DNA from: a bacterium BMS3Abin08
Lineage (GTDB): Bacteria > Nitrospirota > Thermodesulfovibrionia > Thermodesulfovibrionales > JdFR-85
DNA: 64,000 nucleotides
Assembly: GCA_002897935.1 (NCBI GenBank)
Contig: BDTA01000015.1
Coordinates: 17,735-81,734 of the forward strand
Reading direction: 5' to 3'
Below the pieces are notes generated by a model. It was not told the DNA's origin. It searched no databases and saw only the letters and a program-made list of their open reading frames with translations. Shown here in pieces: positions 37,389 to 64,000 of this stretch; the first letter of the stretch is position 1; each line of letters opens with the position of its first letter. A program made the position numbers and the translations under genes.

Positions 37389-37401
37389 GCCCGGAACCGT
37401 T

Positions 37402-39976: not shown

Positions 39977-39994
39977 ATCCGGATTATAATATCT

Positions 39995-40050: not shown

Positions 40051-40083
40051 GCATTAAAACAGTCTTTAAAGGAGGTATAACTT

Positions 40084-45025: not shown

Positions 45026-45073
45026 CTACTGTCGTGTCAACCCTGTAATGATTGAGCGTTGATGCGACACTAT
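45026..45073. repeat. 'empty' copy of the same palindromic element
   Basis: CTACTGTCGTGTCAACCCTGTAATG is directly joined to ATTGAGCGTTGATGCGACACTAT, with no insert. Confidence 0.7.
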
Positions 45074-45086
45074 ACCCTTAAGGGCA

Positions 45087-45100
45087 GGAAGTTCTTTTGC
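45087..45100 (+). promoter_or_regulatory. weak sigma-54 promoter candidate
   Basis: GGAAGTTCTTTTGC has the invariant GG-N10-GC, but the -24 element is poor (AGGAAG against TGGCAC). It lies 30 nt upstream of the ATG at 45131. Confidence 0.3.
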
Positions 45101-45130
45101 TTAAATCCTGCTTCAATGTTAAAATATCGC

Positions 45131-46044: not shown

Positions 46045-47154
46045 ATGCAGCTTGTTATAGTAAAGAGAAACAGGGGATACAACAAGGCCCTTAAATCAGC
46101 AATCCATGAGATAACCGATACACTGTTCAGCGGCAGGATAAAGAGAGGGGATTATGTAGTAGTCAAACCGAATTTTCTGTCACCCGCTCCCCCTTCAAAG
46201 GCTATCCTGACGCACCCCCTGGTCCTGAGGGCCGTCTGTGAATACCTGCTGGAGAGCGGTGCAAGGGTGCAGGTATCTGACAGCCCCGCAATAGGCTCTT
46301 TCGGAAAGATGCTTAAAGAGGGAGGATTTTCGGAATCCCTTTCCGGCTTGGATGTTTTATTCAAGGAGTTTAAAGAGTCCTGCCCGGTTGATGTTGGGAC
46401 ACCTTTTGGTAAGATTGAAGTAGCAAGGGACGTTATCGAGGCCGACCATGTGGTTAACCTGCCCAAGCTCAAGACCCATTCACAGATGCTTCTGACCCTC
46501 GGGGTAAAAAACCTCTTTGGATGTATTGTCGGTATGAGAAAGCCGGAATGGCATCTTCGCACCGGTATAGACCGCTACCGTTTTGCAGAACTCCTGATAT
46601 TACTCGCAAAGAAGATAAACCCCGCTGTTACCATCATTGACGGCATTCTTGCAATGGAGGGGGAAGGCCCGGGAAAGCGGGGCAGACCGAGGAGCCTGGA
46701 TGTTATCATGGGAAGCAGTGATCCCGTCTCACTGGATATTGCCGTATGCAGAATGATAGGACTTGACCCGTTGAGTCTCTTAACAAACAAGGTGGCCGTT
46801 GATCGTGGATTGCCTATAAACGATCCCCCCGTTGACGGCAAGATTCCAGAAGTAAAAAACTTCGAACTTCCCACGGTGGGACCCGTTATCTTCGGACCCA
46901 GGATGCTCCATGGTTTTATGAGACGACACCTCATAGAGAAACCCGCACTAAAGGGAAATACGTGCCGCCTTTGTGGTGAATGCCGGGAATACTGCCCGGC
47001 GGGTGCGATTGGTCTTAATGAACGGACCCTGCACTTTGACTATGCTCGATGTATCAGGTGTTACTGCTGTGTAGAGGTATGTCCCCACGGGGCCCTTGGT
47101 GTAGCGGAACCCCTTGTCGGGAGAATCGCGAGGAAAATCCTAAAAAAGAAATAG
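46045..47154 (+). CDS. DUF362 domain protein with C-terminal 2x[4Fe-4S] ferredoxin domain
   Basis: VVVKPNF and LKTHSQM DUF362 patterns, plus CRLCGECREYCP and CIRCYCCVEVCP. Confidence 0.75.
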   Translation: MQLVIVKRNRGYNKALKSAIHEITDTLFSGRIKRGDYVVVKPNFLSPAPPSKAILTHPLVLRAVCEYLLESGARVQVSDSPAIGSFGKMLKEGGFSESLSGLDVLFKEFKESCPVDVGTPFGKIEVARDVIEADHVVNLPKLKTHSQMLLTLGVKNLFGCIVGMRKPEWHLRTGIDRYRFAELLILLAKKINPAVTIIDGILAMEGEGPGKRGRPRSLDVIMGSSDPVSLDIAVCRMIGLDPLSLLTNKVAVDRGLPINDPPVDGKIPEVKNFELPTVGPVIFGPRMLHGFMRRHLIEKPALKGNTCRLCGECREYCPAGAIGLNERTLHFDYARCIRCYCCVEVCPHGALGVAEPLVGRIARKILKKK

Positions 47155-50080: not shown

Positions 50081-50605
50081 ATGAAGATTTACGACGACTC
50101 AAAACTGAAAGAGGTAGTCTCCAGGAGAATGGCATTTTTTAAGCGGAAACCCGAAGCCGCCGTTTATAAGCCAAGGGTCTCCTCACGTCATGTCTACGGA
50201 CTCTATACGGAAACAGATGTCCGTAAACATACGGTTAAATCAGACTATGCAGAGGCTGCAGGAGGTACGGATGAGGCCCCGAACCCCATAGAACTCCTTC
50301 TGGCCGCCCTGGCTTCCTGTATTGAAGCCGCCTTTTATGAATTCGCCCTTCATGAGGGAATAACCGTTAATTCCCTCTCTGTCGAGGTCGAGGGAAGACT
50401 GGACCTGAGAGGCCTCTTCATGGTTGATGACTCGGTTCCGGCCGGATTCAGTGACATAAGCTATTCTCTCAATATCAACTCCCCCGATGAGGAGGAAAAG
50501 GTTAAGGCCCTTGCTGAAAAGGTGGTTGCCCACTGTCCGGTAGTGGACAGCCTTAAAAGACCGCTTTCTTTAACCGGTAACATAAACATAACCAGGGAGG
50601 AATGA
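50081..50605 (+). CDS. OsmC-family protein
   Basis: PNPIELLLAALASCI and VVAHCPVVDSL are the two conserved-Cys contexts of OsmC/Ohr. Its stop overlaps the metF start. Confidence 0.75.
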   Translation: MKIYDDSKLKEVVSRRMAFFKRKPEAAVYKPRVSSRHVYGLYTETDVRKHTVKSDYAEAAGGTDEAPNPIELLLAALASCIEAAFYEFALHEGITVNSLSVEVEGRLDLRGLFMVDDSVPAGFSDISYSLNINSPDEEEKVKALAEKVVAHCPVVDSLKRPLSLTGNINITREE

Positions 50606-51468
50606 TGCAGATATCCGAGATACTCAACACAAGGGACAGGGGAATTTCCTTTGAGTTTTTCCCGCCTAAGACCGGCGAAGGAATGTCGGCGTTAATGAAG
50701 GTTGCAGTTGAACTGGCTGAATACGACCCGCTGTATGTATCCGTAACATACGGGGCTGGAGGCAGCACCCAGGACAGAACGCGCAAGCTGCTCATCAAGC
50801 TGAAAGAGGAGACGGACCTTACGGTGATGTCCCACCTCACATGTATCGGGGCTACGGGGGAGATGATGGATTCCCTTCTCAGGGACTACAGGGACAACGG
50901 CATCGACAATATCCTTGCACTCAGAGGAGACCCGCCTCAGGATGCGGAGGACTATGATCCCGCAACAGGCGAATTCAGATACGCAAAGGACCTTGTTGAA
51001 TTTGTCGGAAAGTACAATTATTTTTCTATCGGTGTGGCTGTTTATCCCGAGGGTCACCAGGAAGCCCCCTCGCTTGAGGCAGACATAGAGTACACGAAGA
51101 TGAAGGTTGATGCCGGAGCCGATTTTGCAATTACACAGATGTTCTTTGACAACAGATACTTCTTCGACTTCCTTGAAAGGGCACGGAAGAAGGGTATCAA
51201 TATCCCCATCCTTCCGGGTATCATGCCGATAACCGACCTTGTTAGGATAAAGAAGTTTTCCTCCTTCTGCAGGACTACGATTCCTTCCCGGATCGAGGAG
51301 ATGATGTCGGGCGTCCTTGACAAGCCTGAAGAGATGAGGAAGATAGGGACCGAACTTGCGATCAGGCAATGCAAAGAACTGCTCGACAGCGGGGTCAAAT
51401 ATCTCCATTTCTATACCATGAACAAGTCGGAGGTTGTTAGTGAGATTATCAGGGCATTAAGGGTCTAA
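50602..51468 (+). CDS. metF: methylenetetrahydrofolate reductase
   Basis: ISFEFFPPKT, VTYGAGGST, LRGDPP and QMFFD motifs. Confidence 0.9.
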   Translation: MMQISEILNTRDRGISFEFFPPKTGEGMSALMKVAVELAEYDPLYVSVTYGAGGSTQDRTRKLLIKLKEETDLTVMSHLTCIGATGEMMDSLLRDYRDNGIDNILALRGDPPQDAEDYDPATGEFRYAKDLVEFVGKYNYFSIGVAVYPEGHQEAPSLEADIEYTKMKVDAGADFAITQMFFDNRYFFDFLERARKKGINIPILPGIMPITDLVRIKKFSSFCRTTIPSRIEEMMSGVLDKPEEMRKIGTELAIRQCKELLDSGVKYLHFYTMNKSEVVSEIIRALRV

Positions 51469-52407
51469 AGGACCGGCCGGGGCAGCTACCGCTTTGCCGA
51501 TAGAGGGGGCTTTCAATGATTCCCCTATAACGACAAGGCGGCTGTCTGTGACGGGTTTGCCGAAAGGCTCTGTTTCAACCCGGCCGGAAGACAGGTCAAA
51601 CCGGAAAGGGCCTTTGTCGGTCTGTACCAGGGCCTTTGCCCTGAATACCTTCCCGAATGAACCCGTTTGCATGTTCCTGAATAATTCCCTGACCGTATTA
51701 AAGGAAACATTATCCTTGAGTTTCAGGGAGACCGTTTCACAATGGATGACATGTCCGGTGTGGCTGCTGATTATCCTGTTGTCCCTTGCAACTTCGGGAA
51801 GCGGCTCGCTCAATGCCGCCCTGACGGTGGGAATGATGATAGCCCGCTCATTCATTCCCTCGACCAACTCTATTGTATCCAACACTTTTTCCTCTTCAAC
51901 GGTGTCGGTCTTGTTTATGAGGATTATATCGGAATTAATGATCTGGTCTTCAAAGAACTTACCGTACATCCCGGATTCATAGAGTTCAACGAATTCGCTC
52001 GAGTCCACTATTCCGACGACGGTTACAGGATTTACCTTTAACGAACCAAGTGCCTCAAGCACTCCCGAGGGCGATGCAACTCCGCTCGGTTCTATATAGA
52101 GGTGGTCCGGACGGAACTCCTCCGTTACCTCCCCGATTGTTCTGATGAGGTCGAACTTCAATGTACAGCAGACACACCCACTTGGAAGTTCAACCGCCTC
52201 GACACCGCCAACCGAGAGAACTTCTCCATCAATCCCTGTTTTGCCGAAGTCGTTAACAAGGACAACCACCTTTTCCTGTGAATCCTTCAATACGTTCTGG
52301 ATAAAGGTTGTCTTCCCGGAGCCGAGCATACCGCATACAATGGTTGTTTTCACCTCATATTCCTTTCCCCGTATTTCCAGCATGTTGCATTTTATACAGG
52401 TCCTCAA
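51457..52407 (-). CDS. CobW/G3E-family GTPase metallochaperone
   Basis: GMLGSGKTTF P-loop, the GCVCCT metal motif, and a C-terminal CobW_C-like domain. Converges on metF with a 12-nt overlap. Confidence 0.8.
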   Translation of the reverse strand: MRTCIKCNMLEIRGKEYEVKTTIVCGMLGSGKTTFIQNVLKDSQEKVVVLVNDFGKTGIDGEVLSVGGVEAVELPSGCVCCTLKFDLIRTIGEVTEEFRPDHLYIEPSGVASPSGVLEALGSLKVNPVTVVGIVDSSEFVELYESGMYGKFFEDQIINSDIILINKTDTVEEEKVLDTIELVEGMNERAIIIPTVRAALSEPLPEVARDNRIISSHTGHVIHCETVSLKLKDNVSFNTVRELFRNMQTGSFGKVFRAKALVQTDKGPFRFDLSSGRVETEPFGKPVTDSRLVVIGESLKAPSIGKAVAAPAGPLDP

Positions 52408-52604: not shown

Positions 52605-52619
52605 TGGCATCATAGTTGC
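52605..52619 (+). promoter_or_regulatory. sigma-54 promoter candidate
   Basis: TGGCATCATAGTTGC fits TGGCAC-N5-TTGC. It ends only 12 nt before the ATG at 52632. Confidence 0.55.
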
Positions 52620-52631
52620 TTACCTAATAAC

Positions 52632-53027
52632 ATGTCGCATTTACTTATCAGTTCCCATAACCCCTTGCTGATCAAATCAATCTATGGGATGCTGAGGGAT
52701 ATCGGCTATTCCATCGACATCACAGATCATCCGGCAGATGCGGTAAGGCAGGTTTTCAATAATAAGTACGACGCCGTGATACTCGATTCACGGGACGTTG
52801 GCCTTACAGCTTCGGATGCATCGGAAATTATCGGTAGTATCTCCCCCGATACCAGGGTGGTTATTTTAGGTGAAGCGCAGGACAAGACCACTGCAACTAC
52901 ATTCCCGAATTCAGATCAGCTCGATGATCTGAAGACGTATCTGTCCGAGGTATTTGATCATAACAACCGTAATCATAATAAAGGAGGACTATATGACACC
53001 AAAAGAGACTATTCTAAAAGCCTTTGA
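52632..53027 (+). CDS. possible degenerate receiver-like protein (uncertain ORF)
   Basis: MSHLLISSHNP...YDAVILDSRD...VVILGE resembles a CheY-like fold in which the acidic pair is replaced by SH. There is no RBS. The start coincides with the predicted sigma-54 transcription start. Overlaps the next gene by 35 nt. Confidence 0.3.
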   Translation: MSHLLISSHNPLLIKSIYGMLRDIGYSIDITDHPADAVRQVFNNKYDAVILDSRDVGLTASDASEIIGSISPDTRVVILGEAQDKTTATTFPNSDQLDDLKTYLSEVFDHNNRNHNKGGLYDTKRDYSKSL

Positions 53028-54021
53028 GGGAGGTAAACCGGAAAGGGTGCCGGTGACCCTGTTCGGCGGAGGTATGTGGAGCATCAATAGCTGGGGTACC
53101 ACCTTTGAGGAACTCTCAAAGGACCCTGACAGGATGACGCAGATGTTGGTTGATATGAGTGAAAAACTCCAGTGTGATATCGTTTATGCGGGATCGGGGT
53201 ACAACAACTTCCATGCCTCGGCACTCGGGGGGGAGATCAAGTTCCGTGAAGTCGGCGCACCAGACCTTGTAGCCCCTCTTGTAAGTTCGGAGGAGGACCT
53301 CGCAGGACTGAAGATAGAAGATATTGAGAAAGATGAAACGATAAACGTGGTTTATGAGGCGACCAGGAAAACAAAGAAACAGATCGGGGATAAATATGTG
53401 GTAACCATGACCGCATGGGGGCCCTTTACCCTTGCTGCACGGTTCGTAGGCGAAGAGGATATGATGAAGGCTACCTTCAAGAAACCGGCTCTTGTGGAAA
53501 AGGTCACTGAATTTGCTACGGATCTGCTTATTCACCTGTTTGAACCGCTTGTTGACGATGGCACTATCGATGTGATAAGTCTCGCGGACCCGACTGCATC
53601 CGGCGACCTGATCTCCAAAAAGCAGTTCGATAGATTTGTGGTTCCCGCCCTTAAAAGATTTACCGACTGGGCAAAGGCAAAAAAAGCCCATACTCTCCTC
53701 CATATCTGTGGTAATACGAGCGACCGCCTCGAACTCTTCCCTGAAACCGGTGCAAGCTGTATCAGCCTTGATCACAAGACGGACATAGCAAAGGCAAAGG
53801 AAGCACTTTACGGGAAGATGTGTTTTGCCGGAAATGTTGATCCCGTTGCCGTCATGCTCCGGGGCAGTGTCGGGGATATTGAATCCACCTGTAAAGATAT
53901 CATAGGAAGGGCCGGCACGGACGGTGCCTTTGTATTAATGCCGGGTTGTGATATTCCACCAAATGTTCCCTATGAGAATATTCAACAGTTTGTAAATATT
54001 GCACGGCAGTGGAGACTTTAG
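52993..54021 (+). CDS. UroD-family methyltransferase (MtaA/MtbA/CmuA-like, corrinoid-dependent)
   Basis: RBS AAAGGAGG. 342 aa. ERVPV near the N-terminus, a HICGNT-type Zn-ligand region and MPGCDIPP near the C-terminus, as in methylcobamide:thiol methyltransferases. Confidence 0.8.
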   Translation: MTPKETILKAFEGGKPERVPVTLFGGGMWSINSWGTTFEELSKDPDRMTQMLVDMSEKLQCDIVYAGSGYNNFHASALGGEIKFREVGAPDLVAPLVSSEEDLAGLKIEDIEKDETINVVYEATRKTKKQIGDKYVVTMTAWGPFTLAARFVGEEDMMKATFKKPALVEKVTEFATDLLIHLFEPLVDDGTIDVISLADPTASGDLISKKQFDRFVVPALKRFTDWAKAKKAHTLLHICGNTSDRLELFPETGASCISLDHKTDIAKAKEALYGKMCFAGNVDPVAVMLRGSVGDIESTCKDIIGRAGTDGAFVLMPGCDIPPNVPYENIQQFVNIARQWRL

Positions 54022-54233
54022 CTGAAAGGTGACAGGCCGCAGACAATAGCCGGCAGGCTGTGCAGACCGTCCGTTGACCATCTACACCCTGTCACCCACA
54101 ATAAAAGCATGGGAGGTGATAAGTGCAAAAGCTGGTTGCAATCCCAAACCGGGGAGGTTAAGTTATGGGAATTTTAGACGGGTTTAAACGATTTCTGGCC
54201 ATAGGGTCAGAGAACACTCAAAAGGAGGAAAGC

Positions 54234-54680
54234 ATGTCGGAAGAAAAAAAAATGACTCCTGAAGAAGCAAATGAGTACATGAACGAGAAGATGCTTTTTA
54301 CACCGAGGATGTTTAAGGTCATCAATCAGTTGAACCCTGAAGGAGGAAAGACATTTGCAGATTTCTACAATTCCTTCTGGAAGGACGGGGCTCTCTCAAG
54401 GAAGGTAAAGGAACTGATCTTCATGGCGGGTGGCGTTGCCTATATGTCACCACGTTGTATCATTCATGTCTATCCGGCGGTAAAGGCCGGTGCAACCGTA
54501 GAGGAGGTCTTTGAGGCAGCATCGATAGGATGTCTTCTCGCAGGCTTTGTTCCAAACGGACCGGGCATACCCTATGCCTTTGAATATGCAGTAAAATGTG
54601 TCGATCTTGCCCAGAAGATAGAGAAGGGTGAGGATTGGGAGTACCTGCCGGAGCCGAAATTCGATCACGGGGTATTTTAA
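54234..54680 (+). CDS. carboxymuconolactone decarboxylase/AhpD-like family protein
   Basis: ALSRKVKELIFMAGGVAYMSPRCIIH matches the CMD-domain helix pattern with a Cys/His pair. RBS AAGGAGG precedes the ATG at 54234. Confidence 0.65.
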   Translation: MSEEKKMTPEEANEYMNEKMLFTPRMFKVINQLNPEGGKTFADFYNSFWKDGALSRKVKELIFMAGGVAYMSPRCIIHVYPAVKAGATVEEVFEAASIGCLLAGFVPNGPGIPYAFEYAVKCVDLAQKIEKGEDWEYLPEPKFDHGVF

Positions 54681-54928
54681 CAGTCTTTGAACTGAGGTCA
54701 ATTAATGATACTTATACCTGTTCTGAATACATAGATTAAAAATCACGTGCACTTGACTGGGAGTATCGGGGTATCTCGCGGGCCGTGTATCTCCGTCATA
54801 TTCTCCGGTACTCCTCGTTTTTTGCCGGTGGAAGATTTCAATTAAACAGGTAATGCAATGGCTCAAGAAAATATCATCTTAAGCAAGTCAATACAATTAA
54901 ATACGGTCAATCCCGAAAGGAGCAGTTG

Positions 54929-55897
54929 ATGTTCAGATTAGAAACCAAACAGAGGGTATTCGATTTCAACGGAATCAGTATAGGGGGACAAGTCGGCGAA
55001 AACCCTCCCCTTCTGATTGCTTCAATGTTTCACAACAAGGACAGGATACTTCAAGACAGGAAGTCAGCAAAGTTCAACCGTGAGAGGGCCGTGGAGCTGA
55101 TCCGTAAACAGGAAGAACTAAGCAAATCTACAGGAATCCCGGCAATGGTTGCAATGGTCGCGAACACACCTGAGGAGGCTCAGGCTTACATAGACTTCTA
55201 CCTGGAAACTACGGATATGCCCTTTGGTATCGATATGTGGGTGGCTGAGAAGAGAGCAAAGGCAACAGAGTATGTCGCTAAACTCGGGGTCCAGGATAAA
55301 TTCCTTTACAACAGCATAACCCCTTGGGACAAGGACATCAAGGGCCAGGTCGGGAGGCTGAGGGATCTCGGGATAAGGCATGTTGTTGTTCAGGCCTTTG
55401 ATGATCAGGATCAGACGCCGGCGGGACGGCTCAAGTCTCTTGAGGCAATCCTGGCCCAGGGGGCGGATGCCTTTGACACTATCATCGTTGATACCTCCGT
55501 AATGAACCTGCCCTCCACGTCCTTCTCAATTCTGGCAAACAGGTTGATTAAGGAAAAGCTTGGACTGCCCTGTGGAGGAGCCTATTCCAACGGCACACAT
55601 ATGTGGAAGGAATCAAAAGAGATGTGGGGGCTCGATGGCTTCAAGGCAATGGATGCCGTTGCCCAGGGGATGTCTACCGCTATATGGAGTGACTTCAATT
55701 TCTACGGACCTATTGTCACTGCACAGAGGATCTTTCCTGCCGTAGCAACCGCTCATATACTGATGTCCACATTCATGTACGACGAAACAGGGAAAATTCC
55801 GGATAACGACAATCTCCCCATCAGAAAATTCTTTCCCGATTTTATCGTCAAACTCCTCGAAGGAGGGGCAAGGAAAAAAGGAACGTCCAAAAAATAA
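54929..55897 (+). CDS. MtrH-like (pterin-binding) methyltransferase
   Basis: FDFNGISIGGQVGENPPLLIASMFH is an N-terminus typical of the tetrahydromethanopterin S-methyltransferase subunit H family. About 322 aa. Confidence 0.8.
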   Translation: MFRLETKQRVFDFNGISIGGQVGENPPLLIASMFHNKDRILQDRKSAKFNRERAVELIRKQEELSKSTGIPAMVAMVANTPEEAQAYIDFYLETTDMPFGIDMWVAEKRAKATEYVAKLGVQDKFLYNSITPWDKDIKGQVGRLRDLGIRHVVVQAFDDQDQTPAGRLKSLEAILAQGADAFDTIIVDTSVMNLPSTSFSILANRLIKEKLGLPCGGAYSNGTHMWKESKEMWGLDGFKAMDAVAQGMSTAIWSDFNFYGPIVTAQRIFPAVATAHILMSTFMYDETGKIPDNDNLPIRKFFPDFIVKLLEGGARKKGTSKK

Positions 55898-55933: not shown

Positions 55934-56968
55934 ATGGCAGTCACAACAATGAATTCCAGGGAACGGATCCTTAAACTCTTCAATGGTGAGAAGGTTGACA
56001 GGGTCCCTTGCTTCAGCGGTATGGGAAATGTAACCGCTGAGGGGCTGAAAACCCTCGGGTACAACTTCGCCGCCTCCCACCTTGACGCCAAGATGATGGC
56101 TGAGGCGGCTGCAACCACCTACAAGCTCTACGGGTTCGAATGTGGTGTTGTACCTTTTGATCTCTGTATCGAAGCCGAGGCCCTTGGGTGTGAGATAAAT
56201 GTATATGCACATTCCGAGGACATACTCTACCCTACAATAAAGGAAAAGGTAATCCATAACGAAGAGGAGATGGAGATCACTATTCCCCCCGACCTCGTCA
56301 CACGCGGAAGGGTTCCCCTGATGAAGGAGACCATCAAATTACTGAAAAACGAGATCGGCAATGACGTGCCTGTCGGCAGCTACGTGCTCGGGCCATTCAC
56401 CCTTGCAGGACAGATCATGGAACTCAACGACCTGCTAAAACTCTCCTTCAAGAAACCCGACAAGGTCGGAAAACTGCTCGATGTCCTGGCCGATGCCATT
56501 GTCCTTATTGCAAAGGAATTCGAAAGTGCCGGGAGTGATTATGTTACGGTGAGGGAGATGGGGGCAACGTCCGATGTGTTAAGCCCCCGGGGGTTCAAGA
56601 ACCTCATCCTTCCCTATCTCAAAAAGATCTTCTCTGAAGTTAAAGGCAATACGGTCCTTCACATCTGCGGGAAGACAAACGACATCGTACCTTTCATGGT
56701 TGAATCCGGTGCAAAGGCAATCAGTGTGGACCAGAAAAACGACCTTGTGGAAACCCGCAAAAAAATCGGGAGCAACGCACTCGTATTCGGCAATTACGAC
56801 CCTTACAATGTCCTTGTAACCGGAGATGAGGAGATTATCCGGACGACAATGAGAAAATGTATAGACGATGGCGCCAGTGCTGTCTGGCCGGGCTGTGATA
56901 TATGGCCGACGGTTCCACCGGAAAACATGAAAATAATGATGGACGAAATAATCAATTACGGAGGTTAA
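55934..56968 (+). CDS. UroD-family methyltransferase (second MtaA/CmuA-like paralog)
   Basis: MNSRERILKLFNGEKVDRVPCF, HICGKT and WPGCDIWP. A paralog of 52993-54021. Confidence 0.8.
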   Translation: MAVTTMNSRERILKLFNGEKVDRVPCFSGMGNVTAEGLKTLGYNFAASHLDAKMMAEAAATTYKLYGFECGVVPFDLCIEAEALGCEINVYAHSEDILYPTIKEKVIHNEEEMEITIPPDLVTRGRVPLMKETIKLLKNEIGNDVPVGSYVLGPFTLAGQIMELNDLLKLSFKKPDKVGKLLDVLADAIVLIAKEFESAGSDYVTVREMGATSDVLSPRGFKNLILPYLKKIFSEVKGNTVLHICGKTNDIVPFMVESGAKAISVDQKNDLVETRKKIGSNALVFGNYDPYNVLVTGDEEIIRTTMRKCIDDGASAVWPGCDIWPTVPPENMKIMMDEIINYGG

Positions 56969-56971
56969 GCC

Positions 56972-57667
56972 ATGGTATCAGAAGAAAAAAAACAGGAACT
57001 ACTCGAAAAACTCAAAAACGGAGTTGTCCAGTACGATGAGGACGGCGTCAAGGAGGCTGCACAGGAGGTGCTCGATGTCGGGATGGATGTAAATGAGGCC
57101 ATCTTTGACGGTCTCGTCTCCGGAATGGAAGAGGTTGGCAGGCTCTTTGAGGCACAGGAATATTTTGTCCCCGAGCTGCTGATGTGCGCCGATGCACTTT
57201 ACGCCGGACTTGATATTCTCAAACCACACGTTGGGAAGATGGATCTCGGAATGAAGGGATCGGTTGTAATAGGGACGGTCGAGGGTGATGTCCACGATAT
57301 CGGGAAAAACATCGTTAAGATGATGTTTGACGTTGCAGGTTTTGAGGTTTATGACCTGGGCAGGGACGTCCCTCTCGATAAGTTTGTAGAGGAACAGTTA
57401 AAGACGGATTCCGATCTCGTGTGTCTCTCGGCCATGATGACCACTACCATGGTCGGCATGCAGAAGATAATCGACACCCTGAGAGAGAAGAACCCCAATG
57501 TAAAAATCATGATTGGTGGAGCCCCTGTTTCCAGGGAAATTGCCGACAAGTGGGGGGCTGACGGGTATGCAGCTGATGCAAGCAATGCCCTCCAGGAAGC
57601 CATCAGCATGGTCGCATCTCTGAAGAAAATGAGGATAGAGGCAGAGGCAAACAAAGTTGAATCCTGA
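56972..57667 (+). CDS. corrinoid (cobalamin-binding) protein, MtaC/MtbC-like
   Basis: B12-binding-2 helical cap, then GTVEGDVHDIGKNIV (DxHxxG) and SAMMTTT...GGAP Rossmann motifs. Confidence 0.9.
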   Translation: MVSEEKKQELLEKLKNGVVQYDEDGVKEAAQEVLDVGMDVNEAIFDGLVSGMEEVGRLFEAQEYFVPELLMCADALYAGLDILKPHVGKMDLGMKGSVVIGTVEGDVHDIGKNIVKMMFDVAGFEVYDLGRDVPLDKFVEEQLKTDSDLVCLSAMMTTTMVGMQKIIDTLREKNPNVKIMIGGAPVSREIADKWGADGYAADASNALQEAISMVASLKKMRIEAEANKVES

Positions 57668-58340
57668 TTCATTAAAGGACCTGCTGTTGAGTTCCGGCGC
57701 CACCCTGACGGGTATAGGTGACGTGACCGAGGCCCTTTCCGGCGATATCCGGCACCTCACGAGAGGCATTGCGATAGCGGTCAGAAAGGACCTGAATCGG
57801 GACACCGTGGAGTTTCTACTCGGCCTCCAGGGATTAATTGAAGCCTGGTTGAGGAAGAGGAACTACAGGTTTCTTTCCATTCCGCCCGACTCCGACAGGA
57901 GAAATGGAAAGTTTATCTCAAGGTTATATGAGTTTTTCAGTCATAAGACAGCCGCTACATGTGCCGGTCTTGGATGGATCGGGAAAAACGGGCTGATAAT
58001 CAACAGCAGGTACGGACCGAAGCTCTCCTGGGCCACGGTGCTTACAGACACACCATTTATGACCGACAGGCCGATTACAAGGTCTCTCTGCGGCAATTGC
58101 AACCTCTGTGTCAGACACTGTCCTTCCAGTGCCCTGACCGGTACTTCATGGTCGATCGGGGAGCCCTTTAGTGAGATTGTTATTTACAGCAGGTGCAGTT
58201 CCCTGAAGAAAAAACGGACGGTCTTTAATAACAAGCCGAACTGTGGACTCTGTATTAACATATGTCCTTACGCAAGAAAGGTTTACAAGAACAACAAAAG
58301 GGAAAGAATATACCTGAAGGAATCACGATCCTGTCAGTAA
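57657..58340 (+). CDS. QueG/reductive-dehalogenase-superfamily-like 2x[4Fe-4S] protein (short form)
   Basis: SHKTAATCAGLGWIGKNGLIINSRYGPKLSWATVLTD resembles the QueG/RdhA core. CGNCNLCVRHCP and CGLCINICPY cluster motifs. TTG start overlapping the corrinoid protein stop. Confidence 0.55.
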   Translation: MNPDSLKDLLLSSGATLTGIGDVTEALSGDIRHLTRGIAIAVRKDLNRDTVEFLLGLQGLIEAWLRKRNYRFLSIPPDSDRRNGKFISRLYEFFSHKTAATCAGLGWIGKNGLIINSRYGPKLSWATVLTDTPFMTDRPITRSLCGNCNLCVRHCPSSALTGTSWSIGEPFSEIVIYSRCSSLKKKRTVFNNKPNCGLCINICPYARKVYKNNKRERIYLKESRSCQ

Positions 58341-58454: not shown

Positions 58455-60428
58455 ATGAATAAATTCAAAGTGATCTTTCAGCCCTCGGGCAGAAGAGGCG
58501 AGATTGAAGAAGGCAAGACCCTTCTTGAAGCAGCACAGGCCCTCGGGGTTGATATCGAGGCTGTCTGCGGTGCAAAAAAGATCTGTGGTAAGTGCAAGGT
58601 CAGGATAGAAGACGGGTACTTTGAAAAGGACAACATCGATTCGAGCATGGACCATCTCTCTCCCTTTACGGACGATGAGAGTGAACATCTGAAACCCGAG
58701 GACGGCACGGGGATGAGGCTTGCATGTGCTGCTGAAATTCATGGTGATGTAAAGGTATTCGTTCCGGAGCGGTCAAGGGCCGGGAAACAGATTGTAAGAA
58801 AGGCTGCCAAGGAACTCATTATTAAACTCGACCCCGCAGTGAAGAAATACAATGTCAATCTGCCTGCCCCGCAACTGCATGATATGACTGAAGGCGACAT
58901 GGAGAGGGTACTGAAGTTCATGAAAGATGAATATGGACTCCCAGGTCTCGTTTTTGACTATGAGCCGCTTAAAAACCTCCAGGACACCTTAAGGAAAGGT
59001 GAATGGAAGTCAACTGTTACCGTCTGGATGGACAAAGAGATCATCAAGATTGAACCCGGTTTTGTCGAGCCCTCCTATGGTCTTGCCGTAGATGTCGGAA
59101 CAACGACCGTGGTCGGATATCTCTGCGACCTGAACACGGGGAGGGTTGTAAGTACGGAATCCATGATGAACCCACAGGTCCCGTACGGTGAGGACGTCAT
59201 GTCAAGAATAACCTATGCTATGACAAACCCGGATGGCCTCGAAAAGATGCAGAATGCAATAATTGAAGGACTGAATGAGATAATAGACCGTACATCCTCA
59301 GATCTCAGGACGAACGGTAAAAACGGAGGCAATGTAATAGTTGACCTGACCATCGTCTTCAATACCGCTATGCATCACATCTTCCTCGGGTTCAACCCGG
59401 TATACATAGGCCGGTCACCCTTTATACCTGCTGTACAGCGTTCGCTTAATATAAAGGCCCGTGACCTCGGGCTCAGGATCAACCCCGCTTCCTACGTACA
59501 TGTCCTTCCTATAGAGGCAGGTTTTGTCGGGGCTGATAATGTGGGAGTCCTTATTGCCGAAGAACCCTACAATCAGGATGAAACGGTTCTTATAATCGAT
59601 ATCGGGACCAACGGCGAGCTTCTGCTCGGGAATCGAGAGAGGGTCTGCTCCACATCCTGTGCTACGGGACCGGCCTTTGAGGGTGCCCAGATAAAGTTCG
59701 GTATGCGTGCCGCACCCGGCGCTATCGAGAAGATAAAGATCGATCCTGAAACAAAGGAATGTTTATACAAGGTGATCGGCAAGGCCGACTGGCATACCCA
59801 GCTTCAGGAAGTGAACGCCAAGGGGATATGTGGATCCGGCATAATCGATGCGGTCGCCGAGATGTTCAAGGCCGGCATTATTGATAAATCGGGAAGATTC
59901 AACATTGACCTCGATACCATCAGGGTCAGACTCGGGTCGGACGGCAAACCTGAGTATGTCCTTGCCTGGGCCGAAGAGACATCCATCGGAAGCGATATCA
60001 CCATCACACAGGCAGACGTGAGGGCGCTTCAGCTTGCAAAGGGAGCCCTCTATGCAGGAGTAAAGCTTATGATGCAGAAAATGGGAATCAAGAGGCTTGA
60101 CAGGGTTATCCTTGCCGGTGCCTTTGGAAGTTTCATAGACAAGGAATCAGCCCTTGCCATCGGGATGTTCCCCGACTGTGATGCAGAGAAGGTCTATGCC
60201 GTGGGTAACGCTGCCGGAGACGGTGCAAGGATGGCGCTCCTCAACAGGGACAAACGCATTGAAGCGGACGAGAGGGCAAGATGGGTGGAATTTGTTGAGA
60301 TTGCGGTAGAACCCGCCTTTGAAAAGGAGTTCATGATGGCCATGCATTTCCCTCATATGAAGGACAAGTTTCCCAACCTCAAGACACTACTTGAGAAGAA
60401 GAATCTCCCGGTAACCATAAAGGGATGA
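58455..60428 (+). CDS. ATP-dependent reductive activase of corrinoid proteins (RACo/RamA-like; 2Fe-2S ferredoxin + ASKHA/DUF4445)
   Basis: N-terminal plant-type ferredoxin (CGAKKICGKCKV...LACA), then an ASKHA ATPase (LAVDVGTTTV, IDIGTNGE, GICGSGIID). Confidence 0.85.
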   Translation: MNKFKVIFQPSGRRGEIEEGKTLLEAAQALGVDIEAVCGAKKICGKCKVRIEDGYFEKDNIDSSMDHLSPFTDDESEHLKPEDGTGMRLACAAEIHGDVKVFVPERSRAGKQIVRKAAKELIIKLDPAVKKYNVNLPAPQLHDMTEGDMERVLKFMKDEYGLPGLVFDYEPLKNLQDTLRKGEWKSTVTVWMDKEIIKIEPGFVEPSYGLAVDVGTTTVVGYLCDLNTGRVVSTESMMNPQVPYGEDVMSRITYAMTNPDGLEKMQNAIIEGLNEIIDRTSSDLRTNGKNGGNVIVDLTIVFNTAMHHIFLGFNPVYIGRSPFIPAVQRSLNIKARDLGLRINPASYVHVLPIEAGFVGADNVGVLIAEEPYNQDETVLIIDIGTNGELLLGNRERVCSTSCATGPAFEGAQIKFGMRAAPGAIEKIKIDPETKECLYKVIGKADWHTQLQEVNAKGICGSGIIDAVAEMFKAGIIDKSGRFNIDLDTIRVRLGSDGKPEYVLAWAEETSIGSDITITQADVRALQLAKGALYAGVKLMMQKMGIKRLDRVILAGAFGSFIDKESALAIGMFPDCDAEKVYAVGNAAGDGARMALLNRDKRIEADERARWVEFVEIAVEPAFEKEFMMAMHFPHMKDKFPNLKTLLEKKNLPVTIKG

Positions 60429-60517: not shown

Positions 60518-60835
60518 ATGACAAAGGCAAATATTAATCCCGGCATATGCGGTCTTAAAACCAGCGTGGAGATTGAAAAAAAAGAGGGCAAGAGATATGC
60601 CCTCTCTGTCAAGTCCGATTGCGAGATGGTGGAAAAACTCGCAAAGGAGATAGGTGAACTCGACTTCACGGATGCCTTTAAGCGCATAACCGAAAATCCG
60701 GTTTACCGGAAAGGCTCAACATGTCTCAAACATGTCTCCTGTCCCGTGCCCTGTGCAATACTGAAGGCATTCGAGGTTGAGGCGGAGCTTGCACTCCCCA
60801 GGAACGTAACGATAGAACTCATAAGGCAGGAATAG
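60518..60835 (+). CDS. small cysteine-containing hypothetical protein
   Basis: 105 aa. Cys at PGICG, SDCEM, STCLKHVSCPVPC. No family recognised. Confidence 0.45.
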   Translation: MTKANINPGICGLKTSVEIEKKEGKRYALSVKSDCEMVEKLAKEIGELDFTDAFKRITENPVYRKGSTCLKHVSCPVPCAILKAFEVEAELALPRNVTIELIRQE

Positions 60836-60845
60836 ACCGTTAATT

Positions 60846-61100
60846 AGAGTCTGTGTATAAATTACGGTTGTTAGTCATTCCCGCAATCCCGAATGCATTC
60901 GGGAGTCGGGAATCCTTTTTAAAGAACGATTCCGGACAAGCCGGAATGACAGAAAAACGACATCTACATGTATTTGTCATTCCCGCAAGTGAAGCGCGTC
61001 GGGAATCCAGTCTTTTCAATAAGTTCTGGATACCCGACTACAGACTTCGGGCATGACAAAAATAAAAAACGATAACTGTTCGACTTTATACACGGACTCT
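60846..61100. repeat. composite MITE-like element (two fused units)
   Basis: AGAGTCTGTGTATAAA ... TTTATACACGGACTCT, 255 bp, enclosing four hairpin modules. It generates the spurious ORFs 60853-61056 and 60964-61155. Confidence 0.75.
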
Positions 61101-61116
61101 GATTATGGATTAGCCG

Positions 61117-61183: not shown

Positions 61184-61873
61184 ATGGGTATAATCCTTTC
61201 TTTCATTACATACGTACTCGTTATAATTGCATGCCTTAAGGGCATTTCCAACATCATGATTCTCTGTGGCAGACGTGATCTGAAAAATGATCTTTCTATT
61301 ACAAAAAAAAAGCTTACCGGCGGAGTCTTCCTGCAGGGTTTATTCGACATTCTATTCATGGGCAGGCTCTTCCGTGTAAACAAGTTGCTATGGATAGGGG
61401 AATGGACGTTTCATGTATCATTCATACTCACTTTAACCGGCCATCTAAGATACATACTCTATCCCGTACCTAAGTGGGCTGTTGTTATGAACTGCATTGG
61501 GAAATATGCGGGTATTCTACTCCCCCTGTCCCTGTTGTTCGTCCTGTTTGTACGGTTGTCGCTTTCTGAAAGAAGCGACTATGTATCGCCGAGAAATTTC
61601 TTTCTCATCCTGCTTATACTCATCCTGGGCACAACGGGTGTAATCATGAGATTCTTTATAAGACCCGACATAGTCGGCATCAAGAACTATATTATGGATT
61701 TATTAACATTCAATCCGGGGGACCTGCCTTCAGGGTCTCTTTTTGTGATTCACTACAGCCTCTTTCTGGTGTTGCTCCTTTATCTCCCGACGCATATACT
61801 GACCGCACCCTTCATTATTTTTGAGTCAAGGAAGCGGACATCAACAACGAAAATTATTGAATATGATGAATAG
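61184..61873 (+). CDS. NarI/DsrM/HdrE-like dihaem cytochrome b membrane subunit
   Basis: Five predicted TM helices with His pairs in the positions expected for NarI-type haem ligands (FHVSF..GHLRY and VIHYSL..PTHIL). Confidence 0.7.
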   Translation: MGIILSFITYVLVIIACLKGISNIMILCGRRDLKNDLSITKKKLTGGVFLQGLFDILFMGRLFRVNKLLWIGEWTFHVSFILTLTGHLRYILYPVPKWAVVMNCIGKYAGILLPLSLLFVLFVRLSLSERSDYVSPRNFFLILLILILGTTGVIMRFFIRPDIVGIKNYIMDLLTFNPGDLPSGSLFVIHYSLFLVLLLYLPTHILTAPFIIFESRKRTSTTKIIEYDE

Positions 61874-63065
61874 GAAACCATTTACAGAATCACTTTCAGG
61901 CAAACAGCTTTTCGAGGTGAAGGCTTGTACCGAGTGCAGGGAATGCCTTGCTTACTGCCCTGTGCAGGAAGTCACTAACAACCCTGCCATTTCCCCGCCG
62001 GAGAAGCTCCGCATCTTCAAGAAACTTATTGATGAAACAGAGGGGCTGAAATCCAGGTTCTTCGGCAGAAAAGACATAGACCGAAAGGTCCTTGAAGGCC
62101 TCACAAGGGCGGTTTTTGAATGTACGACATGCGGTGTCTGCGGCGAGGTCTGTCCCGTCGGGATAAACACCCAGAGGTTATGGCCGATACTCAGGAAGGA
62201 GATGGTCAAACATGGTACAGGTCCTATCGGGCAGCAAGCCGAAATTCCCGGTGCAATCATGAATACCGGCAACCCTTACAACAAGCCGCGGGAGGAAAGA
62301 TACTCACCGTGGTTGCCGGATAGTATCGAGATAGTCGAGAATGCTGAAATAGCATATTACGCCGGCTGCACAGGCGCCTACCAGGCCCGGCCGATGGTGA
62401 AAGGCGACGTGCTGGTTCTGGATGCCGTCGGCACGCCCTTCACAATGCTTGATGCCGAAGAAGAGGTCTGTTGCGGTTTTCCTCTGTTTATAACGGGACA
62501 GCATGAACAACTTGAATCACTCGTAAAAAGGCTTATTCCTGCTTATAAAAAAAAGGGTGTTAAAACCCTCATCTGCTCATGCCCATGCTGTGTAAACATG
62601 ATGGCCCGGGAATGGCCGTCATATTACGGCGATACCCTCCCCTTCAGAATAACCCATATCACCCAGTATGTCTCCCACGCCCTTAGGGAGGGGACCCTTA
62701 AGATAAAAAGAGCGCTGAATGAGAGGTTAATCTATCATGACCCCTGCTACTTAAGCAGGGGTGTAGGGGTGATTGAAGAACCAAGGGAGGTCTTGAGGCA
62801 TATACCGGGCGTGGAGCTTCTTGAGTTTGACCACAACAGGCGTCTCTCCCGGTGTTGCGGTGCAGGTGGTGCCGCAAAAAACATCTTTCACGAAAACGCT
62901 GTGGCCATAGCACGTCTAAGCATTGATGAGGCGGTCGAAAAGGGAGCGGATAAACTGGTGCTCGGTTGCCCCGCCTGTTACGAGAAGGTAAATGAGGCAA
63001 TGCAGGACCATGTAAGAAAGGTTCAGATCGTGGATATTATGGAACTGCTTTCAACGGTGATTTAA
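61863..63065 (+). CDS. HdrD/DsrK-like iron-sulfur protein (2x[4Fe-4S] + two CCG domains)
   Basis: CTECRECLAYCP and CTTCGVCGEVCP. CCG motifs EVCCGFP...CPCC and SRCCGAGG...GCPAC. The start overlaps the upstream stop. Confidence 0.85.
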   Translation: MMNRKPFTESLSGKQLFEVKACTECRECLAYCPVQEVTNNPAISPPEKLRIFKKLIDETEGLKSRFFGRKDIDRKVLEGLTRAVFECTTCGVCGEVCPVGINTQRLWPILRKEMVKHGTGPIGQQAEIPGAIMNTGNPYNKPREERYSPWLPDSIEIVENAEIAYYAGCTGAYQARPMVKGDVLVLDAVGTPFTMLDAEEEVCCGFPLFITGQHEQLESLVKRLIPAYKKKGVKTLICSCPCCVNMMAREWPSYYGDTLPFRITHITQYVSHALREGTLKIKRALNERLIYHDPCYLSRGVGVIEEPREVLRHIPGVELLEFDHNRRLSRCCGAGGAAKNIFHENAVAIARLSIDEAVEKGADKLVLGCPACYEKVNEAMQDHVRKVQIVDIMELLSTVI

Positions 63066-63081
63066 TAGAGCTGGAGGATAT

Positions 63082-64000
63082 ATGAGCCATTTCAGGATAA
63101 GATGCCGGAACTGTGGAAAGGTACTTGTCGATACATACTGTGCCTTCTGTGAACACTGCAAGGGCGCACTTCTCATAACGGAATACCTTGACAGGGAGTT
63201 CAGGGTGTCGGACAGGGGAGGTATCTGGAAATATAACTGGCTTCCTATACATGAAGCCGGTTTCCCCCAGCCGGCCCCGGTCGTATACAGGTCTGACCGC
63301 CTTGCCGAATTCCTCGGCCTTGACGGTCTTTATGTCGCCTTTAACGGCTACTGGCCTGAACGCGGGGCAGACATCCAGACTTGCACCTTCAAGGAATTTG
63401 AGGCTGCTGTTGTATTACAGAATGCCCGTGAAAATGACGTAAAGGGCCTTGTTGTAGCTTCTGCGGGTAATACTGCGCGTGCCTTTGCCCATCTGTCATC
63501 AGTCTCCGATTTTCCTGTAATCATAGTCGTTCCCCGGATGTGTCTTCTTGAAATGTGGTATCTCGTGGAGACTGTAATGGTACCCACGGTTGCCGTAAGC
63601 GACGGTGACTATTCGGACTCGATCGACGTTGCCAGAAAGATAGCAACCACTATGGGCATGCCCTTTGAGGGAGGGGTAAAGAATATTGCCAAGAGGGACG
63701 GCCTCGGCATAGTCCTGATGGAGGCCGTTAACAGGATAGGGAGGCTGCCCGAGCACTATTTTCAGGCGATAGGCAGTGGTACAGGGGCCATAGGGGTCTG
63801 GGAAATGTCTGAGAGGTTCCTGATGGACGGAAGGTTCGGCTCAAGACAGCCTGTGCTGCACCTCGCACAGAACCTCCCCTTTGCGCCGATGGTAAAGGCA
63901 TGGGAGAGAGAGAGCCGAAGCCTTTTTACGGAAGACCTCAACCCGGACCTGATAGTGGAAATAACAACGCGTGTGCTGTCTAACCGGTACCCCGCATATT
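63082..64000 (+). CDS. threonine-synthase-fold PLP enzyme, cysteate-synthase-like; 3' end runs off the window
   Basis: My own translation, open for 306 codons, with RBS GGAGG. N-terminal Zn-ribbon CRNCG...CAFCEHC. FNGYWPERGADIQTCTFKEFEA has the Lys in an FKE context rather than the SFKDRG of ThrC. ASAGNTARAFA. The family assignment (TIGR03844-like) is from memory and needs an HMM check. Confidence 0.55.
   Translation, partial: MSHFRIRCRNCGKVLVDTYCAFCEHCKGALLITEYLDREFRVSDRGGIWKYNWLPIHEAGFPQPAPVVYRSDRLAEFLGLDGLYVAFNGYWPERGADIQTCTFKEFEAAVVLQNARENDVKGLVVASAGNTARAFAHLSSVSDFPVIIVVPRMCLLEMWYLVETVMVPTVAVSDGDYSDSIDVARKIATTMGMPFEGGVKNIAKRDGLGIVLMEAVNRIGRLPEHYFQAIGSGTGAIGVWEMSERFLMDGRFGSRQPVLHLAQNLPFAPMVKAWERESRSLFTEDLNPDLIVEITTRVLSNRYPAY

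Follow-up and report, generated by a model that had tools for sequence, protein, structure and literature searches.

In the current view, coenzyme M (CoM) serves as a cofactor in archaea that metabolise methane or alkanes and in a few bacteria that oxidise alkenes aerobically, and the latter make it by an unrelated pathway. The closest described counterpart of the genes considered here is the archaeal 'type 2' CoM cluster (cs-comDE with MMP16; MA3297-MA3299 in Methanosarcina acetivorans), in which cysteate synthase (CS) is followed by a fused sulfopyruvate decarboxylase, ComDE; the CS-ComDE order also occurs in Methanoperedens, Methanocella, Methanomicrobiales and others. We analysed a 64,000-nucleotide stretch of DNA from the bacterium BMS3Abin08 (Nitrospirota; contig BDTA01000015.1, positions 17,735 to 81,734), referred to below as the window, which ends inside a CS gene. 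Judging from gene content and order, the genes from 61184 to the window end, together with comDE just past it, form the 3' half of a conserved, predicted operon of 12-13 genes in Thermodesulfovibrionia-type Nitrospirota. Like the archaeal cluster, this locus has CS and then fused ComDE, with sulfonate ABC transporter genes nearby. Unlike it, the locus belongs to a bacterial host and its CS is 43-48% identical to archaeal CS; the neighbourhood is without MMP16 and carries a NarI-like/HdrD-like gene pair in the position that MMP16 holds in Methanomicrobiales, and it is joined to a methyltransferase operon. We tentatively propose, regarding the scheme as a whole as doubtful, that these Nitrospirota follow the archaeal cysteate route to CoM or a closely similar C2 sulfonate thiol, that this thiol serves as carrier or acceptor of methyl groups in a C1 pathway based on corrinoid and tetrahydrofolate, and that an HdrDE-like menaquinol:disulfide reductase keeps it reduced.

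The CS gene (63082-64000, forward strand) is represented in the window by the first 306 of its 419 codons, and the fused comDE gene lies beyond the window end. An exact-protein match of the HdrD-like protein led to ten contigs, from the same population or from sister populations, that carry the sequence past that point. Even truncated, the window product scored 361.9 bits on the CS model TIGR03844 (cut-off 324.9); the full-length protein of 419 amino acids from a sister contig reached 482.6 bits, while the best threonine synthase (ThrC) model gave 81.9. The closest solved structure was 9k3c_A, 'Cysteate synthase' (308.7 bits over residues 4-396), against at most 61 bits for threonine synthases. 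The frame from 63082 holds both FNGYWPERG and TCTFKEFEA, and K104 within the latter motif is invariant in 14 orthologues. A preliminary description, made from the sequence alone, had taken this pyridoxal phosphate enzyme for CS rather than ThrC, and the TIGR03844 score above cut-off, the far lower ThrC scores and the nearest structure bear this out; an ordinary threonine synthase is ruled out by the hidden Markov model and Protein Data Bank (PDB) scores. In a neighbour-joining tree the Nitrospirota CS proteins formed their own clade, apart from the archaeal and Bacteroidota clades.

The same description had anticipated comDE beyond position 64000, and a fused sulfopyruvate decarboxylase indeed follows CS directly on the sister contigs; that of L001 is recorded as BMS3Bbin06_00814. 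It is a fused thiamine pyrophosphate enzyme of 390 amino acids whose N-terminal half matches the alpha model TIGR03845 (183 bits, cut-off 147.95) and whose C-terminal half is borderline on the beta model TIGR03846 (219.5 bits against 221.5). Its score as a phosphonopyruvate decarboxylase, 219.4 bits, stays under the cut-off of 312.5. By these family assignments the locus encodes a route to sulfoacetaldehyde, in which phosphoserine and sulfite give cysteate and sulfopyruvate gives sulfoacetaldehyde. The block itself is without the aminotransferase that would link the two steps, without any enzyme acting on sulfoacetaldehyde and without MMP16, and we found no conserved aminotransferase or CoM synthase 3' of ComDE among the related loci.

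To place the locus we used a CS scan of one genome per species, which gave 80 CS loci, and mapped the window proteins onto them. Loci compared carry L-numbers, L001 and L004 being sister contigs and L095 the locus in genome record CP070669.1; synteny counts include only Nitrospirota loci with enough flanking sequence. The gene order is pseudo-receiver, URO-D methyltransferase, AhpD-like protein, MtrH, MtaA-like protein, corrinoid protein, ferredoxin, RACo, DUF6951, NarI-like protein, HdrD-like protein, CS and ComDE. It is kept as one co-oriented block in about 35 species-level genomes and many independent assemblies, among them the 2.29-Mb record CP070669.1, where each of the 12 junctions between the receiver-like open reading frame (ORF) and ComDE either overlaps or spans less than 100 nt. 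ComDE directly follows CS in 32/33 Nitrospirota loci, the HdrD-like gene lies immediately 5' of CS in 28/34, a NarI-like gene is present in 26/32 and the entire methyltransferase module stands upstream in 16/19, at CS identities of 54-73% across these species. Departures from this order include L016, which has NarI-HdrD-CS-ComDE without the methyltransferase module, L034 and L036, which have CS-ComDE alone, and L032, in which an ABC transporter is inserted between HdrD and CS. In the window, every gene from about 52.6 kb to the end lies on the forward strand, with an overlap of 11 nt between NarI and HdrD and a gap of 16 nt between HdrD and CS; on the sister contigs CS and ComDE overlap by 28 nt. 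Beyond ComDE the flanks are not conserved, except that an opposite-strand SsuA-family binding protein and an unannotated ORF of 199 amino acids come back in about ten loci; the block is therefore the conserved unit.

The coordinates, motifs and overlaps first reported for these genes all proved correct, and so did the central claim that three methanogen-like modules are linked in one bacterial locus: co-occurrence of the gene set across genomes shows a linkage conserved in Nitrospirota and not accidental. The host had been called bacterial, in agreement with the sigma-54 activators and Mla system of the window. An archaeal origin of the window is ruled out by these activators, by Mla lipid transport and an outer-membrane porin, and by the naming of orthologues as Nitrospirota. 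Orthologues of CS, the HdrD-like protein and URO-D protein 'a' are named Nitrospirota, Nitrospiraceae, Thermodesulfovibrionales, Dissulfurispiraceae or Candidatus Sulfobium. An Rfam scan at gathering thresholds found no RNA genes in the window.

The 5' half of the block is a corrinoid methyltransferase module encoded on the forward strand. It opens with a small pseudo-receiver (CheY-like) ORF at 52668-53027, without a Pfam match, whose start we took from the gene call on the sister contig L004 and whose orthologues in L095-L097 were compared by eye. Next comes a methyltransferase of the URO-D/MtaA-CmuA family, here called 'a' (52993-54021), with 193.8 bits on TIGR01463, below the cut-off, 99.9 bits to MtaA of PDB entry 4ay7, and invariant His-Cys-Cys zinc ligands H237, C239 and C319. 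An AhpD/CMD-family protein (54165-54680; Pfam CMD 29.7 bits, invariant Cys98-x-x-His101) precedes an MtrH-family methyl-corrinoid:pterin methyltransferase (54926-55897; NF002142 348 bits, cut-off 287; Pfam MtrH 183.7) and an MtaA-like methylcobamide:thiol methyltransferase (55934-56968; NF004889 278 bits, cut-off 244; TIGR01463 244.7, cut-off 235.4). The last two, noted from the start as MtrH-like and MtaA-like neighbours, both exceed curated subfamily cut-offs. The MtaA-like protein has an invariant zinc site of the same type (H243, C245, C321), and its best solved relative is 4ay7, the M. mazei methylcobalamin:CoM methyltransferase (179 bits); on the MtaA_Meth equivalog model it reached 248 bits, under the cut-off of 400. 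The module is completed by a corrinoid protein with B12-binding_2 and B12-binding domains (56972-57667; TIGR02370 216.5 bits, cut-off 215.3), a 2x[4Fe-4S] protein similar to the Fe-S portion of QueG and of reductive dehalogenases (57657-58340; Pfam Fer4_16, eight invariant Cys; RDH 58.7 and QueG 54.6 bits, both sub-cut-off), and a RACo-type ATP-dependent reductive activator of corrinoid proteins (58455-60428; RACo_C_ter 327.8, Raco_middle 178.6, Fer2 37.8 bits).

In this superfamily the His-Cys-Cys triad marks S- and Se-methyltransferases, and O-demethylases replace the Cys ligands (Kountz and Balskus, PMC10418091). Like MtaA, MtbA and MtsA and the bacterial type 1 mlp clusters (PMC10418091), the Nitrospirota block combines several His-Cys-Cys MtaA-like URO-D proteins with one corrinoid protein and a RACo/RACE activator; unlike the mlp clusters, it adds an MtrH-family pterin methyltransferase and genes for a candidate thiol co-substrate, the latter unreported for mlp. 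By gene content it also resembles the mec cassette for dichloromethane and CmuAB for chloromethane, with MtaA/CmuA-family and MtrH-family proteins, a corrinoid protein, RACo and a protein of unknown function, whereas mec has no sulfonate or Hdr genes.

Between this module and CS-ComDE lies the membrane pair. Its first member (61184-61873, forward strand, 229 amino acids) is a NarI/DsrM/HdrE-type membrane cytochrome-b-like subunit, assigned from Pfam, NCBIfam and conservation. Pfam Nitrate_red_gam matches it weakly (18.2 bits, below the cut-off of 22.9), and its only NCBIfam match is DsrM, at 69.3 bits (E 3e-19), far below the cut-off of 300; a PDB search with the protein gave no match. It has about five hydrophobic helices, and His77, His87, His190 and His204 are invariant in 28-29 orthologues. 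This is the four-His ligand pattern of NarI, HdrE and DsrM, and the protein would accordingly be expected to bind haem. As the preliminary description had it, this gene overlaps, by 11 nt, a gene for an HdrD-type iron-sulfur subunit with two CCG domains (61863-63065, forward strand, 400 amino acids). The HdrD-like protein has two CxxCxxCxxxC and two complete CCG motifs (Pfam CCG twice, 88 bits, and the 4Fe-4S dicluster domain Fer4_8), and all 20 of its Cys are invariant in 29 orthologues, with both CCG motifs complete in each; the Joint Genome Institute label of such orthologues is 'heterodisulfide reductase subunit D'. On NCBIfam models it scored 190 bits for TfrB (cut-off 385), 90.5 for DsrK (400), 74 for TmcB (735) and 58 for HmcF (750). 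In this comparison by curated models no NCBIfam HdrD model matched it. Among solved structures the best match was 9ojn, an 'iron-sulfur-binding reductase' of 1042 amino acids (101 bits), and HdrB gave about 26 bits.

The pair is like HdrDE in joining a dihaem-type cytochrome b with four His to a subunit with two [4Fe-4S] and two CCG motifs, with b before D in overlapping genes, and in having as best NCBIfam match TfrB, whose enzyme uses CoM and coenzyme B (CoB). It is unlike HdrDE in that no CoB, MCR or methanophenazine is expected in a Nitrospirota host; the likeness established is one of architecture. In an all-against-library search the Nitrospirota HdrD-like proteins fell into their own 50% cluster, with next relatives at most 43% identical. 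Relatives outside the clade include one that pairs with a membrane protein in an organism with cytochrome oxidase genes (an aerobe), an HdrD-NarI pair of marine archaea lying among ribosomal and replication genes, and further ones in Desulfobaccales and Asgard archaea. HdrDE-like pairs are common outside methanogens, and by its clustering the Nitrospirota pair is a distinct subfamily. By family logic it would reduce a cytoplasmic S-S bond with quinol. Variants of the pair were seen in three loci: L022 has an extra fused membrane and HdrD-like protein of 679 amino acids with a QmoC-like N-terminus (L022:6044-8083), a different membrane protein of 264 amino acids replaces the NarI-like subunit at L042:8018-8812, and the HdrD-like gene at L047:8704-9908 is split into three frames, either as a pseudogene or through long-read frameshift errors.

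The reading that we favour, at a probability somewhat short of even, is that sulfoacetaldehyde feeds a CoM-type thiol for the His-Cys-Cys zinc methyltransferases, the NarI/HdrD pair acting as a quinol-linked S-S reductase. CS would condense O-phosphoserine and sulfite to cysteate, housekeeping transamination would turn cysteate into sulfopyruvate, and the fused ComDE would produce sulfoacetaldehyde, the archaeal 'type 2' entry to CoM synthesis. In sulfide-rich cells, sulfoacetaldehyde could then become 2-mercaptoethanesulfonate or a close analogue. This thiol would be the substrate of the MtaA-like and URO-D 'a' zinc methyltransferases, both of which would swap methyl groups with the one corrinoid protein, kept active by RACo, while MtrH would link the system to tetrahydrofolate. 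Together, the NarI-like and HdrD-like proteins would use menaquinol to reduce a cytoplasmic S-S bond on behalf of the sulfonate branch; recycling of the disulfide form of the thiol is the pair's possible, if doubtful, role. We prefer a CoM-type thiol because it covers together the fusion of the modules, the thiol-type zinc sites and the genes for sulfonate transport and sensing. When M. acetivorans is starved of CoM, an Ssu-type CoM transporter, cs-comDE and hdrABC are co-induced (PMC11844431). An archaeal precedent for heterodisulfide reductase genes beside CoM biosynthesis genes is L062:231-7877, from an uncultured archaeon, where CS, ComDE, an ORF of 211 amino acids, an HdrB-like gene, a large ORF and an MMP16-like gene follow one another; the HdrB-like gene, two genes downstream of CS-ComDE, scores 368 bits, below the cut-off of 450.

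Several observations weigh against a CoM-type thiol cycle. In L039 and L041 the methyltransferases and CS-ComDE are present and NarI/HdrD is missing. The HdrD-like protein reaches no equivalog cut-off, its best match being the HdrD-like half of the CoM/CoB thiol:fumarate reductase, and no CS was found near its relatives in the two contexts inspected, P0242 and P0393, which are from non-methanogens. Bacterial modules of MtaA/CmuA, MtrH, corrinoid protein and RACo function without CoM, as in the dichloromethane mec cassette, and for this reason membership of the MtaA family is in itself no proof of CoM use. The window shows no MCR, no gene for CoB synthesis and no other consumer of methyl-CoM, which leaves a methylated thiol without an evident purpose. 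The CoM synthase MMP16 (COG1900) was not seen in the window, tblastn searches with two MMP16 queries had no match in the roughly 0.78 Mb of Nitrospirota sequence covering the cluster loci, and in archaea MMP16 co-occurs tightly with sulfoacetaldehyde synthesis (PMC11844431). Finally, in Bacteroidales-type loci an Hdr-like gene set stands directly before CS in 41 of the 60 with enough downstream sequence.

The last of these points leads to a different role for the pair, in the service of CS itself. NarI/HdrD could release or help to make sulfite, by cleaving sulfane-sulfonate S-S bonds (thiosulfate, S-sulfonates) or by re-reducing the dithiol of a sulfite-forming reductase with menaquinol, whether or not the end product is a thiol. 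The Bacteroidales-type unit consists of MarR, HdrC-like, HdrB-like and HdrA-like proteins and a membrane protein of about 600 amino acids with 2x[4Fe-4S] and 2xCCG; a two-CCG protein fused to a membrane part, encoded directly before CS in a Bacteroidales genome, served as query of the metagenome scan that found this unit on 80 contigs. On these contigs (L098-L177) and at L082:3543-10886, a SulP sulfate permease often follows CS, and there is no ComDE and no methyltransferase; in Bacteroidales Hdr-like loci lacking CS we found no conserved partner. The CS of Bacteroidota, which serves sulfonolipid (capnine/sulfobacin) synthesis, belongs to the same enzyme family as that of the Nitrospirota (43-46% identity), and it is one Bacteroidales clade that has the Hdr-like membrane complex before it. 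It differs in having no ComDE, so that cysteate itself is the building block, and in Hdr-like proteins of another type (HdrCBA-like with a fused membrane protein). An Hdr-like complex preceding CS without ComDE or a thiol product is what makes sulfite supply a strong rival, and it gains from the Promethearchaeota, where a PAPS reductase gene overlaps the start of CS-ComDE, from L016, where NarI-HdrD-CS-ComDE occurs without methyltransferases, and from the order NarI-HdrD-CS-ComDE, which looks like a linear pathway. Many members of the class are dissimilatory sulfur reducers or disproportionators, however, and would already make sulfite internally; no characterised pair of NarI/HdrD type is known for thiosulfate or S-sulfonates, and menaquinol-driven thiosulfate reduction is strongly uphill. 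Moreover, the Bacteroidales and Nitrospirota HdrD-like proteins are only about 27% identical, which makes the analogy one of context and not of orthology. We consider a role of the pair in providing sulfite, or the electrons to make it, rather unlikely overall. In the Promethearchaeota (Asgard) loci just mentioned, L072:9297-12380 and L076:486-3561, the genes for PAPS reductase, CS and ComDE form an overlapping trio, with a glycosyltransferase and an ATP-grasp protein nearby and no MMP16 found in the loci.

For a CoM-type thiol, the missing MMP16 need not be fatal, because an MMP16 deletion mutant of M. acetivorans grows without CoM at sulfide of at least 0.4 mM, a COG1900 homocysteine enzyme being the likely backup (PMC11844431). 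In the tblastn search that was blank for Nitrospirota, MMP16 matched at nine archaeal loci: in four of these it directly precedes CS-ComDE (two confirmed on TIGR03287, at 487 and 499 bits), and in the other five it lies no more than a few kb away. It is conceivable, if quite improbable, that NarI/HdrD, perhaps with the conserved Fe-S and Cys proteins encoded beside it, stands in for this synthase without being its orthologue, supplying the two electrons for reductive thiolation of sulfoacetaldehyde or releasing the thiol from a persulfide or mixed disulfide. Such a stand-in would fit the absence of MMP16 near any Nitrospirota cluster and the fact that MMP16 of Methanomicrobiales and Methanomassiliicoccales (487-499 bits) holds the very position of NarI-HdrD, directly upstream of CS-ComDE. 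It would sit poorly with L039 and L041, which are without the pair, and there is no precedent for CCG proteins in C=S or aldehyde thiolation; an enzyme of the COG1900 homocysteine type elsewhere in the genome could do the step instead.

Directly upstream of the pair in most loci is a gene for a DUF6951 protein of 105 amino acids (60518-60835, forward strand; PF22263, 111 bits), which had been suggested as a DsrC-like protein substrate of the HdrD-like subunit. The suggestion did not hold up, as there is no C-terminal Cys pair; C11, C35, H72 and C75 are invariant instead, a C/C/H/C pattern of metal type and a probable metal site, and the C-terminus is variable and without Cys. A single-sequence structure model of the protein was unusable (pLDDT, the predicted local confidence score, 47). 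The same considerations bear on whether the pair is a DsrMK paralogue that reduces a DsrC-type trisulfide with DUF6951 as its protein substrate. Like DsrMK, it unites a membrane quinol-oxidising cytochrome b of NarI type with a catalytic subunit of HdrD type, in a host from a sulfur-metabolising class, and DsrM is the sole NCBIfam match of the membrane subunit. Yet both proteins fall far below the equivalog cut-offs (DsrK 90.5 against 400 bits, DsrM 69.3 against 300), the pair is linked to CS-ComDE and has no adjacent dsr genes, and no dsrAB, dsrC or dsrJOP was seen in the window or in about 45 related loci. DUF6951, besides its metal-type pattern and non-conserved C-terminus, stays with the methyltransferases in L039 and L041, which lack NarI/HdrD. 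We give this alternative only the slightest chance.

DUF6951 and the NarI-like gene are separated in the window by an insertion resembling a miniature inverted-repeat transposable element (MITE) or repetitive extragenic palindrome (REP), 265 bp long (60841-61105) and bounded by 21-nt terminal inverted repeats. Its core 13-mer, GTCATTCCCGCAA, is found at 17 sites in the window, where 1.7 would be expected; these sites mark dispersed intergenic repeats sharing it, for example at 27751, 32387, 44812, 60874 and 60976. In relatives the DUF6951-NarI spacer is 24-100 nt long (24 nt in CP070669.1) or is occupied by a folD-like gene carrying an internal insertion (L011:3708-4649, L017:5998-6948, L045:7098-8039 and L042:7089-8021). 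This gene scores 335 bits on the FolD model; L031 has a degenerate copy, and the window has none, with the MITE in its place. Because the spacer in relatives is short or folD-bearing and without the MITE, comparison of these sequences marks the element as a lineage-specific insertion. Scans for sigma-70 promoters, terminators and sigma-54 promoters at the MITE gave nothing above background. The preliminary description had taken the element as proof that the genes on either side are separate transcripts; as proof it does not hold up, given the relatives that do without it and the position of the sole conserved predicted sigma-54 promoter, before the first gene.

That promoter element, of the -24/-12 type, is TGGCATCATAGTTGCT at 52605-52620 on the forward strand, with one mismatch to the consensus. 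An element of the form TGGCAY-N5-TTGCW with intact GG and GC cores lies just 5' of the first gene in all seven loci examined (the window, L004, L013, L041, L095, L096 and L097), and none was found upstream of the NarI-like gene in these seven. From promoter position and gene packing, the block is a candidate single operon under sigma-54 control. Further upstream, on the reverse strand, a sigma-54 two-component system was identified by Pfam at 40776-44590, comprising a PAS-GAF-GAF histidine kinase (42116-44590) and a sigma-54-activating response regulator (40776-42116); this pair, which likely regulates the cluster, is also upstream of it in L095, L096 and L097. Beside the kinase, and in the same position in L095-L097, is an orphan substrate-binding protein of the SsuA family (45059-46036, forward strand; Pfam NMT1_2; SsuA_fam 69 bits, sub-cut-off), a candidate sulfonate sensor. 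The surroundings of the cluster repeatedly include SsuA-family binding proteins, an ABC transporter and TauE: at L001:12117-19550, on the opposite strand past ComDE, a TauE exporter and an SsuA-type ABC transporter are accompanied by a four-subunit succinate dehydrogenase/fumarate reductase, whose flavoprotein has its highest score with the TfrA model (604 bits, sub-cut-off), and by fumarase, and the TauE-ABC set recurs in L032.

These transport genes can also be read in favour of a product that is not a thiol. CS-ComDE might make a C2 sulfonate such as taurine, isethionate or sulfoacetate, as a solute or building block, and the methyltransferases might be a separate system carrying methyl groups from methyl-sulfur, methyl-selenium or halomethane compounds to tetrahydrofolate, adjacent through shared regulation or inheritance. 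A deep-subsurface study that found cysteate synthase in one bacterial metagenome-assembled genome (MAG) has already proposed anaerobic taurine synthesis by this route (PMC12019592), and bacterial MtaA-like clusters are tied to methyl-sulfide and methyl-selenide metabolism without CoM (PMC10418091); TauE and sulfonate ABC transporters are nearby, and CS-ComDE stands alone in L034 and L036. Against a non-thiol product, the conserved block has no aminotransferase, reductase or dehydrogenase for sulfoacetaldehyde, the 12-gene order is held at 54-73% CS identity while the outer flanks vary, and there is one single conserved promoter. We judge such an arrangement distinctly unlikely.

The methyltransferase module is tied to tetrahydrofolate through MtrH, through a lineage-specific MetF and through the folD-like insertions. 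The methylene-tetrahydrofolate reductase MetF (50602-51468, forward strand; TIGR00676 344.6 bits, cut-off 293.7) adjoins the block in this lineage only, and as a member of the conserved block it is ruled out, being missing upstream in L095-L097. NarI/HdrD could in principle be an electron outlet from methyl-tetrahydrofolate oxidation to menaquinone with no S-S reduction at all, for which Hdr-like proteins attached to MetF in acetogens are a precedent. MetF beside the cluster in the window, a folD-like gene directly 5' of narI in L011, L017, L042 and L045, and the connection through MtrH would agree with this. However, the pair is without a flavoprotein partner; it stays with CS-ComDE in L016, where there is no module, and L039 and L041 have the module without the pair. 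The link to C1 oxidation is weakened because MetF is not conserved and the pair follows CS rather than the methyltransferases, and we regard an electron outlet of this kind as very unlikely.

Other genes around the block include a CobW-like GTPase metallochaperone (51457-52407, reverse strand; NCBIfam CobW 100.8 bits), kept upstream in L004, L095 and L096. Right after the orphan SsuA-family protein, a protein with DUF362 and ferredoxin domains (46045-47154; Npun_F2552 family, 187 bits, sub-cut-off) is encoded in the window and not in L095-L097. A PocR-PAS sensor adjoins the cluster in CP070669.1 (L095:6020-8443) and recalls MecA, the PocR-domain kinase of the mec cassette. Upstream of the regulatory genes, the window carries hydrogenase maturation genes of HypE-like, HypF and HypB/CobW-like types (36387-40779). 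Two adjacent ORFs of 432 and 402 amino acids (14129-15427 and 15567-16775) without a Pfam match lie upstream of a DUF5752, TreT and OtsAB (trehalose) group.

A full-text literature search found no description of a Nitrospirota cluster of CS, Hdr and methyltransferase genes; the nearest published statement is that of the deep-subsurface study with CS in one bacterial MAG (PMC12019592). All the parts belong to known families. It is their combination that is new: an archaeal-type CS-ComDE in a bacterial phylum, fused to an HdrDE-like pair and an MtaA/MtrH corrinoid system behind one sigma-54 promoter in dozens of species. The cluster is abundant in public metagenomes and is also present in CP070669.1. 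If the pair supplies sulfite, it would answer where anaerobes get sulfite for CoM and sulfonolipid synthesis. If instead the locus makes a CoM-type thiol that is cycled as proposed above, anaerobic bacteria would for the first time be credited with a CoM-dependent cycle of methyl transfer and thiol/disulfide exchange, and this would imply a CoM synthase unrelated to MMP16 and with it a new final biosynthetic step. Such a cycle would broaden the known distribution and roles of CoM chemistry, would provide a candidate substrate for the widespread orphan HdrDE-like complexes, and would change how the 'methanogen marker' genes mtaA, hdrD and comDE are read in sediment, aquifer and vent metagenomes.

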